Source: Candidatus Methylomirabilis limnetica
Lineage (GTDB): Bacteria > Methylomirabilota > Methylomirabilia > Methylomirabilales > Methylomirabilaceae
Reading direction: 5' to 3'
NCBI RefSeq assembly: GCF_003044035.1
Contig: NZ_NVQC01000032.1
Coordinates: 1-21,336 of the forward strand
Length of the DNA stretch: 21,336 nt
The notes below the pieces were generated by a model. That model searched no databases. It was not told the origin of the DNA and saw nothing but the letters and a program-made list of their open reading frames with translations. Position 1 is the first letter of the stretch. The number at the start of each line of letters is the position of its first letter. Below are positions 1 through 20,225 of the stretch, piece by piece. The translations under genes and the position numbers were made by a program.

Positions 1-1546
1 CCTTGGGGCGCTCCCGCCCTCGTTCCCCCCCCCCCCCCCCCGAAACCGTCTGCGGGATCGCGGTTGGCAGAAAGACGGTGAAACGGGTTCCCTGTCCTTC
101 CTCGCTCTCCACCATCAGCCTCCCCAGGTGGGCCTCCACGTGGCGGTGGGCGATGGAGAGGCCCAGCCCCGTCCCCCCCTCCCGGGTGGTGAAGAAAGGG
201 TCAAAGATGCGGTCGAGGTCTGCCTTGGGGATGCCGTAGCCGGTGTCCACCAGCTCCACCCGCAGCCATTCTGGGGAATCGAAGACTGTGTTGATCGTGA
301 TCGTTCCACCATCGTCCATCGCCTGGATGGCGTTGAGGAGGAGGTTAAGGAAGAGTTGCTGGAGTTGCTCCACATCACCCTTCATACGGGGAAGGTCGGG
401 GGCATACTGCTTCACGAGCTGCACGCCATGCTTGGCGAATTCCCCTCGGAGGAGAAGACACGCTCGATCCAGGGGTTCTGTTAGATCCATCACCTCCAAG
501 CAAGGCGCCTGTGGTCTGGCAAAAGCCAGGAGCCCTCGGATCGTCCGGTCGGCCGCCGCCACGTTTCGGTGGATCGCCTCCAGATATTCGCCCCCTTCGC
601 GGCACGGATCGGCCGCTTGCTTGAGGAGCACCTGGACTGATCCCCCGATGATGGCAAGCGCATTGCCCAGCTCATGGGCCAGTCCCGCGGCAAGTTGGCC
701 CACAGACGCAAGCTTTTCTACATTCTGGAGGTGGTGCGCTTGATGAACCTTCTCCGTGACGTCTCTGATCAGTTCGACGGCCTCCATCGGTCGCTTCCCT
801 TCGTACGCCAGTGGATAGCTAGACACCTCCAGATAGCGAGACCTCCCGTCCGGCATCTGCTGCGAGACTGAGCGTGAGACGGCCCGACCGTTGCTAAAGG
901 TCTCGAGGACCGGGCACCCGTCGCAGATCTCTTCCCTGCCGAACAGGACCCGGTAACACATTCGACCGATGAGGGCCTCAAGCGGGGACCCGGCGAGTGC
1001 GGCAGCGCCTGCATTGGCGACCGAGATCATCAAGTTCTGATCGACGATAATGAGGGAATCGGCAATGGCGTCGAAGACCGCGCGGAGTCGCTGTTGGCTT
1101 TCAATGAGGGCTTGGGTCCTGTTCTCCACTCGCTGCTCCAACTCATCGAGTAGGGCCTCCTTTTCGGAGACAAGTCGGTAGCGCTCCAGGGCCTGTTTCA
1201 CTTGGCGGCCCAGCGTCTGAAGATCGACCGGCTTCAGGAGATAACCAAAAGCGCCTTGCCGAACAGCCTCGACGGCGGATCCAAGATCAGCGTGACCGGT
1301 GAGGATCAGAATCTCGGTCCGTGGACTGAACTCTTTGATGGCCTTCATCAGTGCGAGACCATCCATGAGGGGCATCTGAAGGTCGGTGAGAACGAGGGGA
1401 GGGCGCTCCGCCTGGAAGAGCTGAAGAGCCTCCACCCCATCATGGGCCAGCAGAACCTCACAGCTCAGCGTCGGGAGAAACTCGGCCATCATTTCGAGGG
1501 CATGTTCGTCGTCATCAACGACCAGAACTCTTCTGTCCTCTCCCAT
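1..1546 (-). CDS. Hybrid sensor histidine kinase (REC-PAS-HisKA-HATPase_c); 3' end runs off the left window edge
   Basis: This ORF is absent from the supplied track because it has no stop in the window. My translation from ATG (complement of 1544-1546) reads MGEDRRVLVVDDDEHALEMM...LTDLQMPLMDG (receiver). It continues with a PAS-like segment carrying a CDGCP cysteine motif, H-box LAHELGNAL, N-box LLLNAIQAM, G1 DTGYGI and G2 GTGLGLSIA. A GAGGG Shine-Dalgarno sits about 8 nt upstream. The frame stays open to position 2. Confidence 0.85.
   Translation of the reverse strand, partial: MGEDRRVLVVDDDEHALEMMAEFLPTLSCEVLLAHDGVEALQLFQAERPPLVLTDLQMPLMDGLALMKAIKEFSPRTEILILTGHADLGSAVEAVRQGAFGYLLKPVDLQTLGRQVKQALERYRLVSEKEALLDELEQRVENRTQALIESQQRLRAVFDAIADSLIIVDQNLMISVANAGAAALAGSPLEALIGRMCYRVLFGREEICDGCPVLETFSNGRAVSRSVSQQMPDGRSRYLEVSSYPLAYEGKRPMEAVELIRDVTEKVHQAHHLQNVEKLASVGQLAAGLAHELGNALAIIGGSVQVLLKQAADPCREGGEYLEAIHRNVAAADRTIRGLLAFARPQAPCLEVMDLTEPLDRACLLLRGEFAKHGVQLVKQYAPDLPRMKGDVEQLQQLFLNLLLNAIQAMDDGGTITINTVFDSPEWLRVELVDTGYGIPKADLDRIFDPFFTTREGGTGLGLSIAHRHVEAHLGRLMVESEEGQGTRFTVFLPTAIPQTVSGGGGGERGRERPK
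25..41. repeat. C17 homopolymer (G17 on the coding strand), inside the 3' tail of the kinase ORF
   Basis: Counted directly: positions 25-41 are all C. It is read as GGGGG in the kinase frame, downstream of the last HATPase_c motif. Confidence 0.95.
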
Positions 1547-1853
1547 AGCTCGCACCCTCGCTTGGGCTACAGACCTTTCAGAGAACAAGAAGGAGATACC
1601 ATTGTATTGAAACAGGGGATGGGACGCGGAAAGGCGAACTCTGCCGAAGGGTGGGAACTGGGGCCTAACCCCGACGAGGTAGTACGTGGGCTGTGGGCAC
1701 GCTGAAGGATGAGGGGTTGCTGAACGCGGCGCTGATGCAACAAAGACTGGAACGATCCTGGACCCATATCCCGCTCCCTTTGTTCGACTCCAACCGATTC
1801 TCCGACCCTCAGTCCCTCAGTAGGGTATATTTAAAGTTGGGCTAATATATGCC

Positions 1854-1880
1854 ATTATGCTTAATTGTGCCAAGCATAAT
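1854..1880. promoter_or_regulatory. AT-rich 9-bp inverted repeat (ATTATGCTT-N9-AAGCATAAT), possible operator upstream of the minus-strand kinase
   Basis: Arms 1854-1862 and 1872-1880 are perfect reverse complements. They lie in the most AT-rich patch of the 1547-2395 spacer. Function is not established. Confidence 0.3.
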
Positions 1881-2346
1881 TTAAATATTGGTAAAATTAT
1901 CGGGGTCTTCCCCGACTTTGATGCAGTCTAAGCGCCTTGAGGCAGGTAGCCCCCGAAGCGCCTCGCTCTGGGCACTCTGAAACGTTGATCAACATCTGGC
2001 GGCAAATCGGGGCCGTCCGTCGGGGCTTCAAAAGCCCGCAAGTGAAGTGGATACCCCCTTGATCGGAATACGCACAAGTCGTGCGTCAAGAGTTTTGGCG
2101 TCATGATGACGCCCTAAACACGGAGCAGTCGGCGCGGACCCCATCTAACACGACCAACCTGCCTTACAAGCCGATAACTCACGGATTTCTCAGAGAAAAT
2201 CCTGCCTCTCCTCAGTCTCAGTTCCAATCCTTTGGACGGCGTATAATAGTCATTCTACGCCGTTCAGACCGCCACGCATGCGTTTCCGCACAGATATTCC
2301 CAACCTCATACGCTTGGTCAGATACTCTCTAGAGTATTCAAGAGCC

Positions 2347-2376
2347 TTGACAGACATACCATACATGCGATACAGT
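2347..2376 (+). promoter_or_regulatory. Candidate sigma70 promoter of vapBC (TTGACA-N18-TACAGT)
   Basis: TTGACA at 2347-2352 and TACAGT at 2371-2376. An 8-bp inverted repeat CAGACATA/TATGTCTG (2351-2358 and 2388-2395) straddles it. GAGG at 2383-2386 precedes ATG 2396. Confidence 0.35.
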
Positions 2377-2395
2377 CTCTATGAGGTTATGTCTG

Positions 2396-2662
2396 ATGCG
2401 AAAATATGAGAAAAAAGCCCAGGTCCTCCTGACGGAACGGCAGTACCGGGATCTCCAGGCGATCGCCGAACAACAACAGAAACCGCTTGGCGCATTGCTT
2501 CGCGATGCCGCCGAAGAGGTCTATCTCAAGCAGAAGCGCTCCCACGATAAGGCCCAGGCGGTCCAGGCCCTCCTCTCTCTCACCGAAACCGAGGCACCAG
2601 ACGAGTATCACGACTGGGAGGAGCAATACCTCTCTCACAAGGCCAGTCATGGCAGCGGCTGA
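2396..2662 (+). CDS. vapB: Ribbon-helix-helix (CopG/VapB-like) type II antitoxin
   Basis: MRKYEKKAQVLLTERQYRDLQAIAEQQQKPLGALLRDAAEEVYL fits a beta-strand plus two-helix RHH pattern. The gene overlaps the downstream PIN gene by 14 nt. The start could instead be ATG 2381. Confidence 0.7.
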   Translation: MRKYEKKAQVLLTERQYRDLQAIAEQQQKPLGALLRDAAEEVYLKQKRSHDKAQAVQALLSLTETEAPDEYHDWEEQYLSHKASHGSG

Positions 2663-3086
2663 GACTCTCTTCCTCGACACCAACATCATCATGTACGCCA
2701 TTGGCACAGACCATCCCCTCAAGCCCGCCTGTGTAGCGGCACTGAGGCAGGTCGAGGCCGGGACCATCCAGGTCGTCACCAACGTGGAGGTCTTCCAGGA
2801 GCTACTGCACCGGTACTATGCCATTGGGCGCCATGAGGTGGCCGCTCACGCCTTCACCCACCTCAAGGCCCTATGTGAGCAGGTCCTCCCTGTCCTCGAG
2901 GCAGATCTCGACCGTGCCTTCGCGATCCTCAACGACCACCCCCACATCAACGTCCGCGACGCTCTCCATGCAGCGACCATGCTCAACGGCGGCCTGCGCA
3001 CGATTCTGAGCACCGACACGCACTTCGATACCATCCCCGAGATCACTCGGATCGATCCACGCACCCTTCTCTTCCCCAATAACTGA
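2649..3086 (+). CDS. vapC: PIN-domain toxin (VapC family)
   Basis: The PIN acidic residues are in the expected order: FLDTN, EVFQEL, RDALHAA, STDTHFD. The protein is 145 aa. Its start overlaps the antitoxin stop. Confidence 0.8.
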   Translation: MAAAETLFLDTNIIMYAIGTDHPLKPACVAALRQVEAGTIQVVTNVEVFQELLHRYYAIGRHEVAAHAFTHLKALCEQVLPVLEADLDRAFAILNDHPHINVRDALHAATMLNGGLRTILSTDTHFDTIPEITRIDPRTLLFPNN

Positions 3087-3227
3087 TCACGCCCAACTCT
3101 AGCTGGCTAGAGACACTCTCCGCCTTCGAACGCTAGCCCAAGGTCAAAGCAGGCGACCCCTCACCATTCAGGCGTACCAGTACGACATCGCGCTGCTATG
3201 CCCGCTTGTCGGACCGGATCAGGGATA

Positions 3228-3518
3228 ATAGGGACAGACACTATTTATTGAAATCTTTTCTTGGTCTTCCTCTCTGCAGTACGTGTCTTACTCGTCCAGT
3301 TTCCTGCGCACCTCCCAGATGAACCCGTCTCTTTGCAGTGGCCGCTCTGTCATCGTGCAAATTCTAATCTCTGTCGTTCCGAAAGACCGCCTGGCGATCA
3401 TTCCCTCGTTGCCGCACATAATACGGGTGGCCGGGTGCAACAATTCGAGTAATCAGTGGCATGCGCGATCATGACCGCGAGCACCACGAATTGTCACGAT
3501 AATAGTGTCTGTCCCTAT
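3228..3518 (+). mobile_element. Non-autonomous TIR-bounded element (MITE-like), copy 1, 291 bp
   Basis: Perfect 18-bp terminal inverted repeat: ATAGGGACAGACACTATT (3228-3245) and AATAGTGTCTGTCCCTAT (3501-3518). No credible ORF. Collinear with copy 2 at 4548-4827. Confidence 0.75.
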
Positions 3519-3673
3519 TTTTAAGACACTTTAGGATTTCCACTCTGCGAAAGACCGCCAAAGCGATGTGCGGATGCCTGTCTCTGATGGCGGAATCCCC
3601 AACTGTGCGCCCTTGTTCCACCTTATTGCCTGTCTAGTTTTCGGGGAGCATTATACTGCCAAGGCGCTGCACT

Positions 3674-3701
3674 TGACGTGATATAACATGCATGTTATAT
3701 T
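3674..3701 (+). promoter_or_regulatory. Candidate promoter (TTGACG-N16-TATATT) with an embedded perfect 20-bp palindrome, likely a toxin-antitoxin operator
   Basis: TTGACG at 3674-3679 and TATATT at 3696-3701. ATATAACATGCATGTTATAT at 3681-3700 is a perfect palindrome. It covers the annotated ATG at 3688. Confidence 0.45.
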
Positions 3702-4041
3702 CCCGGTCGTGGGTTACGTCATCGAGTATTTCAACTCGTCCGTCCAAACCGACATCGAGGCGTGGCCGGCGGGGCTGAAGGCGCGCTATCGCGCGTTGAC
3801 GCTGCGCATGGCGGACCATGGGTCGAACCTCGGCATGCCGCATACCCGCGCGTTGGGCGGCGGATTGTTCGAGATTCGCGTCAAGAGTGCGGAAGGCATC
3901 GGGCGCGCCTTCCACTGCACATTGATCGGACGGCGCATCGTGATCCTGCACGGCTACGTGAAGAAGTCCGATAAAACGCCGGCCAAAGTGTTGAGAATCG
4001 CCCGCAACCGCATGAACGAGGTACTGCAACATGGCACGTGA
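3688..4041 (+). CDS. RelE/HigB-superfamily toxin (Gp49-like, DUF891-type)
   Basis: LFEIRVKSAEGIGRAFHCTLIGRRIVILHGYVKKSDKTPAKVLRIARNRMNEV matches the Gp49/HigB-like pattern (LFELR...YR.fy...ivlLhgf.KK.qktP). The toxin gene comes first and overlaps the HTH antitoxin by 11 nt. The true start may be GTG 3709, because ATG 3688 lies inside the putative promoter. Confidence 0.7.
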   Translation: MHVIFPVVGYVIEYFNSSVQTDIEAWPAGLKARYRALTLRMADHGSNLGMPHTRALGGGLFEIRVKSAEGIGRAFHCTLIGRRIVILHGYVKKSDKTPAKVLRIARNRMNEVLQHGT

Positions 4042-4354
4042 CACGAAATACCGTCCGGTTCCGTACGATCCCAAGGCGGCATTGAAACGCGACCTGCGTG
4101 ACCCGGATTTCCGCGCCGCCTGGGAATCCATCCAGGACGAGTTCACCGCACTGGATGTGCTGCTGGAAGCCCGCCACCGGGCGGGCCTGACGCAGGAACA
4201 GGTCGCGGCGCGCATGGGGGTTTCGCAACCGGCGCTGGCGCGAGTGGAGACTTCGCTCGGTTCGCGCAAGCATTCGCCTTCGCTCGCCACGCTGCGCAAG
4301 TACGCCGTCGCCGTGGGTTGCAAGCTGCAAATCCGGCTGGTGCACGAAAAATAA
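4031..4354 (+). CDS. XRE-family HTH antitoxin (HigA-like)
   Basis: HTH segment GLTQEQVAARMGVSQPALARVE and the typical C-terminal tail LRKYAVAVGCKLQIRLV. It is paired with the upstream toxin. Confidence 0.75.
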   Translation: MARDTKYRPVPYDPKAALKRDLRDPDFRAAWESIQDEFTALDVLLEARHRAGLTQEQVAARMGVSQPALARVETSLGSRKHSPSLATLRKYAVAVGCKLQIRLVHEK

Positions 4355-4547
4355 CTGGCCACAGCCATCCCATCACGCACGCGATACCCGGGCACCCCTC
4401 TCTCCCGGGCTGGGCGCATGTGTGCAAGCTGGACATGGTTTACATCGCTCCGCCGATACTACTGGTTGGGGTCACTGGAGTCAGGTGCATAGGCGCCTAT
4501 ACCCGCATCAGAGTTATTGAATTACGTATGATATAGGGACATATGAT

Positions 4548-4827
4548 ATAGGGACAGACACTATTTCTTGAAATCCTTTCTTGGTCTTCCCCTCTGCCAC
4601 ACGTGTATTACTCGTCCAGTTTCCTGCACACCTCCCATATGAACCCGTCTCTTCGCAGCGGCCGCTCTGTCATCGTGTGCCTTCGCATCGCTGTCGTTCC
4701 GAAAGACCGTCTGGCGATCATTCCCTCGTTGTCTCACATGATACGGGTGGTCGGATGCAACGGTTCGGGTAATCCGTAGCAGGCACGATCATGACCGCGA
4801 GCACCCGATAATAGTGTCTGTCCCTAT
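4548..4827 (+). mobile_element. Non-autonomous TIR-bounded element (MITE-like), copy 2, 280 bp
   Basis: The same perfect 18-bp TIRs lie at 4548-4565 and 4810-4827, in the same orientation as copy 1. My hand alignment gives about 31 substitutions plus one 10-bp indel, roughly 89% identity. Confidence 0.75.
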
Positions 4828-4904
4828 TTTCCTATTTTATGGGGTGAACCTTGGATGTTTCCACAAGTCAATTCGGATAGCCGAAAGAAGCGAGCTAAGG
4901 TGCC

Positions 4905-5837
4905 TTAGTGGGGCTGGAGAACGGCTGCTGGTCCCTTTGCATTTAGGACGCATGCCTGCTCAAGCGTGCAGGCCTCGGCTTCAAGCTGGAAGGTGGTGTG
5001 GGCAATGCCGAAGCGCTCCTTCAGCATCTGGTTGATCCGGTCGAGCAGCCGATTTCCCTGGCTGGCCTGGAGATCAGTCACCTGGAGGTGGCAGCTCATG
5101 GCATAGACATGGGAGCTCAAGCTCCAGACATGCAGGTCGTGCACATCCTCGACCTCCGGGAAGCTGCGCACAGCCCCTAAGAGGCGATCCACCTGAACCC
5201 CGCGCGGAACGCCCTCCATCAACACATTCACTGTCTCTGCCACGATGTCCCAGCATCCGGCCAAAACCAGCAGCCCGATCACACAACTCAGGAGCGGATC
5301 GATCAGGCTCCAGCCACTGAGCAGTATGATGACCCCGGCCGCCACGACGCCAAGCGACACGAACCCATCGCTCAGCAGGTGCAGAAAGGCGCTGCGAATG
5401 TTGAGATCCCGGGTCCCCCGCCGAAGCGACAGGGCGACTCCGACATTCATCAGAAACCCTATCCCTGCTACCGCCATCATCACTGGCGCATCCGGTACAA
5501 CCGTGGATCCCAGCCGATTGATGGCCGCATAGAAGATCCACAGGGTGATGCCGATCAGGGCGATCCCGTTGGCAAGGGCGGCCAGGATGCTGGCCCGGTG
5601 ATAGCCAAAGGTCTTTCGTTCGTTGGCGGGACGCTCCACCTGCCGGAGCGCAACCCATGAGATTATCAGCCCGATGACATCGCTAAAGTTATGCCACGCA
5701 TCGCCAATGAGGGCGAGACTTTCAGCAGCCAGACCTGCCGCCAGTTCGGTAAGAGCAAACAGGAGGTTCAGGACGATCCCGACCTTCAAACGCCGACTGA
5801 TGGAACCCTCACTATCCTGGGTAATTCCTGGATTCAT
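4905..5837 (-). CDS. czcD: Cation diffusion facilitator (CDF) family divalent-metal efflux protein
   Basis: Six hydrophobic segments. HxxxD metal-site motifs HNFSD (TM2) and HLLSD (TM5). The C-terminal cytoplasmic domain contains VHDLHVWSLS, typical of CzcD/ZitB. Confidence 0.85.
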   Translation of the reverse strand: MNPGITQDSEGSISRRLKVGIVLNLLFALTELAAGLAAESLALIGDAWHNFSDVIGLIISWVALRQVERPANERKTFGYHRASILAALANGIALIGITLWIFYAAINRLGSTVVPDAPVMMAVAGIGFLMNVGVALSLRRGTRDLNIRSAFLHLLSDGFVSLGVVAAGVIILLSGWSLIDPLLSCVIGLLVLAGCWDIVAETVNVLMEGVPRGVQVDRLLGAVRSFPEVEDVHDLHVWSLSSHVYAMSCHLQVTDLQASQGNRLLDRINQMLKERFGIAHTTFQLEAEACTLEQACVLNAKGPAAVLQPH

Positions 5838-6785: not shown

Positions 6786-6949
6786 CAACTACTCAGGTGT
6801 TTAGGCTGAAGGCTGTTAGTCGTTGCACATGGGCCGAATCAAGGCGCCCAGAACCTTTTCGGTATCCATCGTTTTCGCGTCGTATTCGAAAACGCCTGGC
6901 GCGTTCCTACAGTCTAAAAGCCTTCAGTCTATCTACCTAAGTAGTTACG
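6786..6949 (-). mobile_element. Second family of small TIR-bounded element, copy 1 (164 bp), inverted relative to copy 2 at 20062-20172
   Basis: Termini CAACTACTCAGG (6786-6797) and CCTAAGTAGTTAC (6936-6948) are inverted repeats. Its reverse complement aligns collinearly with 20062-20172, except for a roughly 66-bp internal insertion and a different heptamer copy number. Confidence 0.65.
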
Positions 6950-10857: not shown

Positions 10858-10902
10858 ATAATATCATGATGATTCCTTCCGGCCATAATGTTCTGGCTCT
10901 TC
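10858..10902 (+). repeat. Left copy of a roughly 45-bp imperfect direct repeat (partner at 20180-20225)
   Basis: The 20-bp core CCATAATGTTCTGGCTCTTC is identical at 10883-10902 and 20206-20225. The upstream part, ATAATATCA(A)TGATG.TTC, is also shared. Hand count gives about 39 of 46 matches. Confidence 0.7.
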
Positions 10903-14105: not shown

Positions 14106-14204
14106 CCCTCCCCCTTGATGGGGGAGGGCTAGGGTGGGGGTGAGAATTATCATGACTCGCAACGTTTTCACCCCATCCCAACCTTCCCCCGTCAAGGGGG
14201 AAGG
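14106..14204. repeat. Inverted pair of REP-like units (9-bp C/G hairpins plus arms)
   Basis: CCCTCCCCC-TTGAT-GGGGGAGGG (14106-14128) and CCTTCCCCC-GTCAA-GGGGGAAGG (14182-14204). The arms CTAGGGTGGGGGTGA and TCACCCCATCCCAAC are roughly complementary, 11 of 15. Confidence 0.7.
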
Positions 14205-20001: not shown

Positions 20002-20037
20002 CACCCCCACCTTCATCCTCCCCCATCAAGGGGGAGG
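20002..20037 (+). repeat. Single REP-like unit (arm CACCCCCACCTTCAT plus an 8-bp C/G hairpin)
   Basis: CCTCCCCC-ATCAA-GGGGGAGG at 20017-20037, preceded by the same arm motif seen at 10671. Confidence 0.65.
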
Positions 20038-20061: not shown

Positions 20062-20172
20062 GTAACTATTCAGGTAGATAGACTGTAGGCTTTTAGTCTG
20101 TAGGAACGCACCATGCGCAATTACTAACAGCTTACAGCTTACAGCCTACAGCCTAAACACCTTGTAGTTACG
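20062..20172 (+). mobile_element. Second family of small TIR-bounded element, copy 2 (111 bp), containing a 4 x 7-bp tandem array
   Basis: Termini GTAACTATTCAGG and CCTTGTAGTTAC. The tandem array ACAGCTT ACAGCTT ACAGCCT ACAGCCT lies at 20127-20154. Collinear with the reverse complement of 6786-6949. Confidence 0.65.
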
Positions 20173-20179
20173 TCACAAT

Positions 20180-20225
20180 ATAATATCAATGATGGTTCTC
20201 TCACACCATAATGTTCTGGCTCTTC
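20180..20225 (+). repeat. Right copy of the roughly 45-bp imperfect direct repeat (partner at 10858-10902)
   Basis: See the left copy. The 20-bp core at 20206-20225 is identical. Confidence 0.7.

Follow-up and report, generated by a model that had tools for sequence, protein, structure and literature searches.

When two copies of a short repeat bracket a higBA-type toxin-antitoxin operon, the question arises whether the repeats brought the operon to its present site, and what kind of element they are. We addressed this for a locus of Candidatus Methylomirabilis limnetica (phylum NC10) in a window of 21,336 nt of contig NZ_NVQC01000032.1; all coordinates given here are positions in this window. 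An earlier note on this DNA had described the copies as non-coding elements bounded by terminal inverted repeats (TIRs), arranged like a composite transposon or a Campbell-type insertion. The evidence set out below makes it probable that the copies, termed A and B, are dead, internally deleted copies of a TIRYT-encoding element, or TIRtron. Judged by their divergence, A and B most likely inserted separately rather than carrying higBA, for which they probably do nothing today.

Element A (291 bp, 3228..3518) and element B (280 bp, 4548..4827) are direct copies on both sides of a 1029-bp segment that holds higBA, with the transposase sense on the minus strand in each. A repeat search found perfect inverted arms of 19 nt in A (3227-3245 / 3501-3519) and of 18 nt in B (4548-4565 / 4810-4827), and the same perfect inverted repeat, ATAGGGACAGACACTATT, forms the ends of both. 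Together with a 17-mer scan, this search placed the TIRs of A at 3228..3245 (plus strand, ATAGGGACAGACACTATT, transposase C-terminus side) and 3501..3518 (minus strand, promoter side), and those of B at 4548..4565 (plus strand, C-terminal side) and 4810..4827 (minus strand, promoter side). The two elements are 88% identical without gaps over 258 nt (3228-3485 versus 4548-4805) and 88.8% identical when aligned. The 17-mer TAGGGACAGACACTATT occurs in four exact copies in the window; at ≤3 mismatches no further copies were found there, and 0.01 are expected by chance. The pair of direct TIR-bounded copies around higBA and the absence of substitutions from the four TIRs, both reported in the earlier note, were thus borne out. 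Independent assemblies from ENA, JGI and Logan show the same arrangement at 97.7-100% identity, which excludes an assembly artefact. Short-read contigs end ~26 nt inside element A, indicating that the element is multi-copy in the source genome, as such repeats would cause breaks of this kind.

A longer element with the same termini and a transposase gene, which the earlier note had proposed to look for, was found in several genomes. This autonomous parent is 745 bp long, with ~20-bp TIRs ((A)AAATAGGGACAGACACTATT) and one gene for a 225-aa HUH/Y1 transposase. Intact 225-aa open reading frames (ORFs) within 745 bp are present in L069, a Ca. Methylomirabilis metagenome-assembled genome (MAG), and in two metagenome contigs, L150 and L152, of which L150 shares its metagenome of origin with the window's closest relative. 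In the long forms, a TTGACA-type, sigma-70-type promoter, seen by eye, lies directly inside one TIR and is followed by the 225-aa ORF. The parent protein matches Pfam Y1_Tnp (PF01797, E=1.5e-16). With the NCBIfam model REP_Tyr_transpos (NF047646, cut-off 80 bits), the homologues L046 and L103 scored 80.6 and 71.9 bits, respectively, while scores with the IS200 model NF033573 were 24-26 bits versus a cut-off of 55. The full-length proteins measure 225-235 aa (L046, L103, L069, L150, L152 and six more distant ones), and the motifs NHVH, GHLWQGRF and RYVE(R/N)NP are invariant in all 11 proteins compared. The best match to a solved structure in a profile search was E. coli TnpA-REP (PDB 4ER8), with the HUH, WQ and Y motifs aligned; a PDB search with the single L069 sequence gave no match, so that the profile was needed. 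The C-terminal tail of ~85 aa is conserved and includes an SS motif, and a Pfam search with this tail returned no match even at E≤10. By sequence, the enzyme is related to the RAYTs, tyrosine transposases that accompany repetitive extragenic palindromes (REPs).

Element A can be aligned end to end with full-length L046, L103 and L069 except for one 455-bp gap. On its minus strand the N-terminus of the intact proteins can be read as MPLITRIVAPGHPYYVRQRGN…, and a hidden Markov model (HMM) built from the full-length proteins matches the ORF fragments 3367-3468(-) and 3291-3452(-). The N-terminal transposase remnant MPLITRIVAPGHPYYVRQRGNDRQAVFRNDRD* (3364..3462, minus strand) corresponds to MPRIARIVAPGHPYHVTQRGNYRQAIFRND in the intact proteins (HMM match E=2.5e-12) and stops just past the deletion junction at ~3366/3367; the C-terminal remnant …ERPLQRDGFIWEVRRKLDE* (3288..3356, minus strand), which is out of frame, corresponds to …GRPLGRDGFIGKLSRKLGRV. 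At 3468..3497 (minus strand) lies a degraded copy of the element's own promoter, GTGACA-18-CATGAT, with TTGACA at the same position in intact parents. Element B belongs to the same deletion lineage, the shared junction lying at ~4686/4687, and has lost its -35 box through an extra 11-bp deletion; the 98%-identical strain L134 has B without this 11-bp deletion, in a copy 98.9% identical to B. Both window copies retain the first 32 and last ~20 transposase codons, with the HUH and tyrosine motifs both deleted. The description of the elements as non-coding therefore holds functionally and fails as to origin, as each is a minus-strand remnant of a transposase gene. The earlier view that they are non-autonomous and need a transposase in trans agrees with the loss of the catalytic motifs and the existence of full-length relatives.

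The same truncated form is found well beyond the window. We collected 15 short copies, seven from a genome scan and eight from metagenomes scanned with an interior motif as the seed, so that many copies at different insertion sites exist, as the earlier note had expected. In 15 of 15, situated at different loci and in different assemblies, an identical 455-bp stretch (positions 146-600 of L069) is deleted, which removes both catalytic motifs and breaks the reading frame. One identical deletion at many loci implies multiplication after the deletion, for which a transposase is needed in trans; we infer from the sequences that TIRYT enzymes supplied it. The copies are short, TIR-bounded, multi-copy, without a functional gene and of internal-deletion origin, which are the generic features of miniature inverted-repeat transposable elements (MITEs), and they form a true non-autonomous MITE family. 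No target-site duplication was seen at the MITE copies; Y1 chemistry should leave none. The phylogeny of the family has the shape of a star, with the consensus-like L155 at its centre; L155 is the nearest copy to A (91.7%) and, at 93.9%, also the nearest to B outside its own orthologue, followed by L048 at 92.8%. In copies found independently of the TIR, decay was 7.0% in the TIRs versus 8.0% in the interiors (p=0.63). This equal decay indicates that the family decays neutrally and is mostly fossil. Methylomirabilis-lineage MITE copies ~83-92% identical to the window copies also lie on contigs L081 and L082 of assembly DATMXF01, which is labelled Patescibacteria group; these contigs probably stem from Methylomirabilis and were binned into the Patescibacteria MAG by mistake.

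The terminus itself has a far wider distribution. An exact 17-mer scan of one genome per species returned at least 120 loci, and among the matches listed 123 loci contain 152 exact copies, with a concentration in Omnitrophota, Elusimicrobia, Nitrospirota, Methylomirabilis, anammox Planctomycetota and Desulfobacterota. Inverted TIR pairs among these listed matches include 28 tight palindromes with arms 8-12 nt apart, nine pairs of 71-200 bp and eight of ~290 bp; at least five full-length TIR-bounded elements of 736-746 bp were found, and one Elusimicrobia MAG has seven TIR loci. Full-length elements bounded by TAGGGACAGACACTATT (L069, L103, L046, L097, L113, L098, L024, L077 and L013) come from Methylomirabilis, Nitrospirota, Desulfobacterota, Omnitrophota and Elusimicrobia. 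Across six phyla, exact TAGGGACAGACACTATT flanks transposases just 35-56% identical to one another, and the DNA terminus thus appears far more conserved than the enzyme. Plasmid relatives with ~35% amino acid identity are likewise bounded by perfect repeats, the elements being 795 and 785 bp long, with the TIRs AAAGGGGACAGA… and AAAAGGGGTCAGA…; the repeat of the P. aeruginosa plasmid element reads AAAGGGGACAGATTT… and that of the R. rubrum plasmid element TTAAAAGGGGTCAGACCCC, and the cores of these plasmid-relative TIRs are GGGGACAG and GGGGTCAG. Shuffling does not worsen the folding of single ends (z from -0.6 to +1.7). In other genomes, tight dimers reach -26 kcal/mol (z=-13) with A/T runs on their flanks. 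Three 17-mer matches in viral contigs, none with a partner repeat and two with identical flanks, were treated as unrelated to the element, and a literature search for the repeat sequence returned unrelated eukaryotic primer matches only.

Two observations on the long forms concern the junction of gene and repeat. In L024, L097, L113 and L077 the transposase frame runs into the TIR, so that the repeat is translated (…NSVCP = AATAGTGTCTGTCCC; …IGTDTIF = ATAGGGACAGACACTATTT). In L077 (4749-5523, an Elusimicrobia MAG with at least seven loci with dimers), the transposase gene lies between two tight repeat dimers (4749-4794 and 5478-5523) and not between single repeats, an arrangement that resembles a REPtron.

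These features agree best with those of TIRtrons, which encode TIRYT enzymes and have flanking inverted repeats with the core GGGGWSAS that are also dispersed as single copies, dimers and clusters (PMC3733652, Di Nocera et al. 2013). Most TIRYTs fall into TnpA-Y1 subclass 2.1, which is characterized by NHVH, W[EQ] and YIELNP/Y[IV]HLNP motifs, a median length of 238 aa and the lack of a canonical REP (PMC6006769, Quentin et al. 2018). TIRtrons also correspond to Group 1 of the RAYTs, the group that most resembles IS elements (PMC5581495, Bertels et al. 2017). The elements described here likewise have a ~225-240-aa HUH/Y1 gene with NHVH, WQ and Y..(E/H)xNP between perfect TIRs, a low gene copy number, a wide and patchy distribution and a repeat dispersed as singles, tight dimers and clusters, and their core AGGGACAG (aGGGACAG) agrees with the GGGGWSAS consensus at seven of eight positions. 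They differ in that the window has only dead deleted derivatives with both gene ends, MITEs of a sort undescribed in PMC3733652 and PMC6006769, and in that the hosts (NC10, Omnitrophota, Elusimicrobia, Nitrospirota, anammox Planctomycetota and Desulfobacterota) lie outside those surveys. C-terminal HTH-like Pfam matches (Bac_DnaA_C, HTH_23, HTH_28) reported for subclass 2.1 were not detected here at E≤10. A MITE that is the remnant of a TIRtron gene is a new example of a known but little-studied kind.

Other families fit less well. The REPIN/RAYT systems (REPtrons) of Gammaproteobacteria share with the present elements a Y1 transposase related to TnpA-REP (best PDB match 4ER8), hairpin-forming inverted-repeat doublets scattered in intergenic DNA and non-autonomous repeats dependent on a low-copy enzyme gene. 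A REP is defined as a hairpin repeat with a 5' GT[AG]G foot (PMC6006769), whereas the ends here are not self-palindromic (z≈0) and lack that foot, the terminus is common to several phyla rather than lineage-specific, and the short form is a deletion derivative of a whole gene-bearing element and not a REP doublet. Canonical REP/RAYT membership was therefore rejected, as the single ends have no hairpin and no GTAG or GTGG foot. IS200/IS605 elements share the HUH/Y1 catalytic core and presumably the single-stranded DNA (ssDNA) chemistry, with oriented insertion and no target duplication, but they have subterminal hairpins and no TIRs, whereas TIRs are present and end hairpins absent here, and their Y…Q motif is replaced by Y…NP. 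Membership of this family was rejected on these differences and on the scores of 24-26 bits versus 55. The earlier note had left open an IS630/Tc1-like TA target duplication at the element ends. An IS630/Tc1-mariner assignment was rejected because the autonomous form encodes a Y1 and not a DDE enzyme and the TA lies within the repeat: all of the 152 listed occurrences, with their unrelated flanks, have it unchanged, A-rich positions further out are also conserved, and in a comparison with the nearest relative homology is lost 12 nt beyond the TA.

We then asked how the two elements came to flank higBA. Each is closer to copies elsewhere than to the other, which argues for separate insertion, as does the G+C content of the bracketed segment (3519-4547), which is not distinctive. 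At 59.1% it is richer only than elements A (50.5%) and B (53.6%), and is close to the window (60.3%), vapC (61.0%) and czcD (59.7%), contrary to the earlier impression that it exceeds its neighbours. The same note was correct that the 1029 bp hold a Gp49/HigB-like toxin, an XRE antitoxin and their promoter. This higBA module recurs as a unit, at 84-94% nucleotide identity, in three other contexts (L168; L163/L164, beside AbiEii and ParE/Phd genes; and L165-L167, between sdhCD and dsbD), in none of which a TIR was found at ≤4 mismatches, and homology to L168 and L163-L167 stops 137-185 nt inside the A and B boundaries. No HigBA- or VapBC-like gene adjoins the TIR in the 123 listed loci, according to a phmmer search against their ORFs. 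The recurrence of the module without a TIR and the absence of HigBA-like genes near the repeat elsewhere both argue that higBA is not cargo.

Several observations weigh against this interpretation, and most of them would favour a composite Y1 transposon in which the outer ends, on the promoter side in B and on the C-terminal side in A, serve to move the 1.6-kb A-higBA-B unit. Since the direct orientation leaves one end of each type outside, a complete set of ends is available, and co-mobilisation is mechanistically conceivable. B lies exactly at a synteny breakpoint, which a simple spacer insertion does not predict: homology with the nearest long-contig relative, L139 (~90% nucleotide identity), ends at 4839/4840, at the start of the B-associated sequence (…CCCCAT|AAAATAGGAAAATAGGGACAG…). 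Direct MITE pairs bracket single genes at two other loci too, one around a 216-aa Fic/Doc protein beside a PLD-ResIII-DUF3427 helicase-nuclease gene (L154, 590-2261) and one around a 496-aa NmrA/DUF2867 protein (L149, 340-3271). Six of 16 copies are paired, which by rough arithmetic exceeds random placement. In the four perfect TIRs of the window none of 68 sites has changed, while the interiors are ~7-9% off the consensus; taken as a sign of recent mobility, this perfection is significant but confounded by ascertainment, since the elements were noticed through their TIRs, and it may reflect only that. Neither the window nor 8 kb of extra flank yielded an intact transposase, and nine look-ups with czcD and vapC/higB returned no two-sided empty site, only a one-sided boundary. 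The order and independence of the two insertions are read from sequence divergence and were not observed, and the TIRYT mechanism rests on homology.

We nevertheless regard a composite unit as unlikely. Partners are not nearest relatives in any of the three pairs (88.8% identity in the window, 90.0% in L154 and 85.7% in L149). An identical HigB occurs on 23 contigs, and all of those long enough to show flanking genes have this one context, while the 84-94%-identical homologues, whose homology ends well inside the element boundaries, occur in contexts free of the TIR. Strand-specific insertion is known for IS608 and ISDra2, and same-orientation neighbours are expected anyway for a Y1 enzyme that inserts in this way. 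The excess pairing could arise from clustering in permissive variable islands or from such strand-specific insertion, without cargo capture. The locus does resemble integron-mobilising MITE pairs and composite transposons in having a same-orientation non-autonomous pair with intact outer ends and a small gene cassette between them; it is unlike them in that there is no sign that the unit moved, the diverged copies are old, the cargo is also found where the elements are absent and the enzyme is Y1 rather than DDE.

The breakpoint at the edge of B is also compatible with a Campbell-type event, in which a circular or foreign molecule bearing higBA plus a single MITE underwent recombination with a MITE already present beside czcD, or, more generally, with recombination between dispersed MITEs having made the junctions. 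Multi-copy, ~90%-identical repeats could act as recombination substrates, and at least six different continuations past czcD are seen in close relatives. However, the parental configuration was not found, the continuation of the nearest relative past czcD matches nothing in the window or in L124, the higBA homology block leaves out the MITEs and spacers, and 88.8% identity makes a poor substrate for homologous recombination. We consider this explanation very unlikely, and neither of the two origins proposed in the earlier note, composite or Campbell-type, is favoured by the relationships among the copies or by the contexts of higBA.

Two readings would give the repeats a function instead. The first is a host-useful, REPIN-like repeat acting as an insulator, terminator or mRNA-end structure around the toxin-antitoxin operon. 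REP and RAYT systems have been argued to be domesticated (PMC5581495), and the stable hairpins formed by tight dimers of the same TIR in other genomes, with their A/T runs, make a terminator or insulator function plausible for those dimers. The window copies, in contrast, are forms of 280-291 bp rather than tight hairpins, a search of 3050-4950 found no terminator-like site, and in the copies found independently of the TIR the TIRs decay like the interiors, as expected under neutral decay; such a role around higBA accordingly has little to commend it, and we give it scant credence. The second reading, a structured RNA or riboregulator in the element interior, had been raised as an alternative in the earlier note. 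The interior is ~90% conserved among copies and some stems are predicted, but there was no Rfam match at gathering thresholds (whole window) or at E≤1 (1500-5000), RNAalifold on 15 copies gave a covariation term of +0.67 with one of 74 pairs compensatory, and the interior is collinear with a protein-coding gene except for one frame-breaking deletion. The structured-RNA reading is effectively refuted. The refuting outcomes named in the earlier note did not arise: other copies and an autonomous relative exist, and RNA-type covariation is absent.

The favoured history, in which A and B are separate insertions of a dead TIRtron derivative, would run as follows. One 745-bp copy lost 455 internal bp, including both catalytic motifs, and the resulting 289-bp derivative would then have multiplied in Candidatus Methylomirabilis genomes through transposase supplied in trans by intact copies. 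A and B would have inserted independently of each other and with like orientation, one into each of the two intergenic spacers that flank higBA, which would itself be an independently mobile cassette in a hypervariable toxin-antitoxin island beside czcD. Both copies then decayed, as seen from stop codons, a degraded promoter and, in B, the 11-bp deletion. By analogy with TnpA-REP and the IS200/IS608 TnpA, the TIRYT enzyme would cut and rejoin ssDNA at the repeats; insertion would then be orientation-specific and without target duplication, which could explain why the neighbours point the same way.

The outer ends of B carry partial echoes of the TIR. A tandem ACGTATGATATAGGG / ACATATGATATAGGG was found by repeat search at 4524..4547, and the …CCTATATCA echo likewise lies outside copies L048 and L052. 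At the other outer end (4828..4839), the reverse complement reads TAAAATAGGAAA and then the TIR ATAGGGACAG…; with this echo the element-associated sequence ends, at the synteny breakpoint 4839/4840, and the same echo is present at L048. Echoes just outside the true ends (AAAATAGG-AAAA-TAGGG…; …CCCTA-TAT..CCTATATCA) are common to independent copies, occurring at window 4524-4553 and 4828-4839, L048, L052, L103 (2122-2277), L005, L079, L111 and L114; in L103 the C-terminal-side end is in tandem triplicate, with starts at 2122, 2185 and 2261. Such echoes may have been left behind by the transposition mechanism or by slippage.

The higBA module occupies 3656..4362 on the plus strand and comprises a promoter found by promoter search (TTGACG-17-TATATT, 3673-3701, plus strand), higB (3688-4041, plus strand; Gp49/HigB-like, PF05973, E=1.8e-22) and higA (4031-4354, plus strand; HTH_3/XRE antitoxin, E=4e-10). 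A 20-nt perfect palindrome, ATATAACATGCATGTTATAT, read from the sequence at 3681-3700, overlaps the promoter, spanning its -10 region and including the ATG annotated as the start of higB (3688). It is kept in the 94%-identical module of L168 and is a probable operator. The real start of higB may be the GTG at 3709, in which case the transcript could be leaderless or near-leaderless.

A vapBC-like pair (2381..3086, plus strand), with the VapC PIN domain at 2649-3086, lies upstream of A. On the other side, czcD (4905..5837, minus strand), for a cation diffusion facilitator, is the last gene of a uvrD-NT5C-rodZ-czcD block that is kept in relatives, and synteny is conserved with M. lanthanidiphila. 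The 3' flank of czcD (from window 4840-4904 on; L139, L141, L143, L144, L158, L159 and L162) is a hypervariable boundary in relatives with 82-95% CzcD identity, one of which diverges just ~10 nt past the stop codon. Between a sigma-54 regulator gene and vapB, the window has a gene-poor stretch of ~730 bp (1650-2380) with a GC fraction of 0.50-0.55, no Rfam match and no repeat, in which only a 38-aa gene is called in the source contigs. A second, unrelated family of interspersed intergenic repeats is rich in the self-complementary motifs AGGCTGTAGGCTG / CTACAGNCTA; its copies pair 6795-6948 with 20062-20162 (inverted), 10866-10902 with 20189-20225 and 14107-14142 with 20002-20037, and it recurs in L156 (2692-2807), with one copy showing a ~67-bp insertion or deletion and one lying beside a MITE in L156. 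The GC-rich palindromic repeat CCTCCCCCTTGATGGGGGAGG is present twice.

For the locus itself, these results remove a tempting over-interpretation, since the data do not make higBA the cargo of a transposon, and the repeats appear to be fossils. TIRYT/TIRtron elements are little studied, and it is debated whether RAYT-like enzymes are transposases or domesticated genes. At least 15 copies with one unique 455-bp deletion at different loci and in different assemblies are clean comparative evidence for activity, with a TIRYT mobilising TIR-bounded DNA in trans. The exact 17-mer common to enzymes just 35-56% identical provides a defined DNA substrate for biochemistry, and also a sequence tag for such elements in MAGs of NC10, Omnitrophota, Elusimicrobia, Nitrospirota and anammox bacteria. 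A bolder and unlikely proposal is that TIRYTs are active, horizontally spreading ssDNA transposons, with a ~17-nt terminus that stayed nearly constant across at least six phyla as the enzyme diverged to 35-56% identity, deletion derivatives that proliferate in trans and same-orientation pairs able to capture and move small toxin or defence genes (candidates being higBA at this locus, the Fic gene of L154 and another gene in L149). If true, this would amount to a Y1-type composite transposon route that shuffles toxin-antitoxin islands in uncultivated anaerobes.

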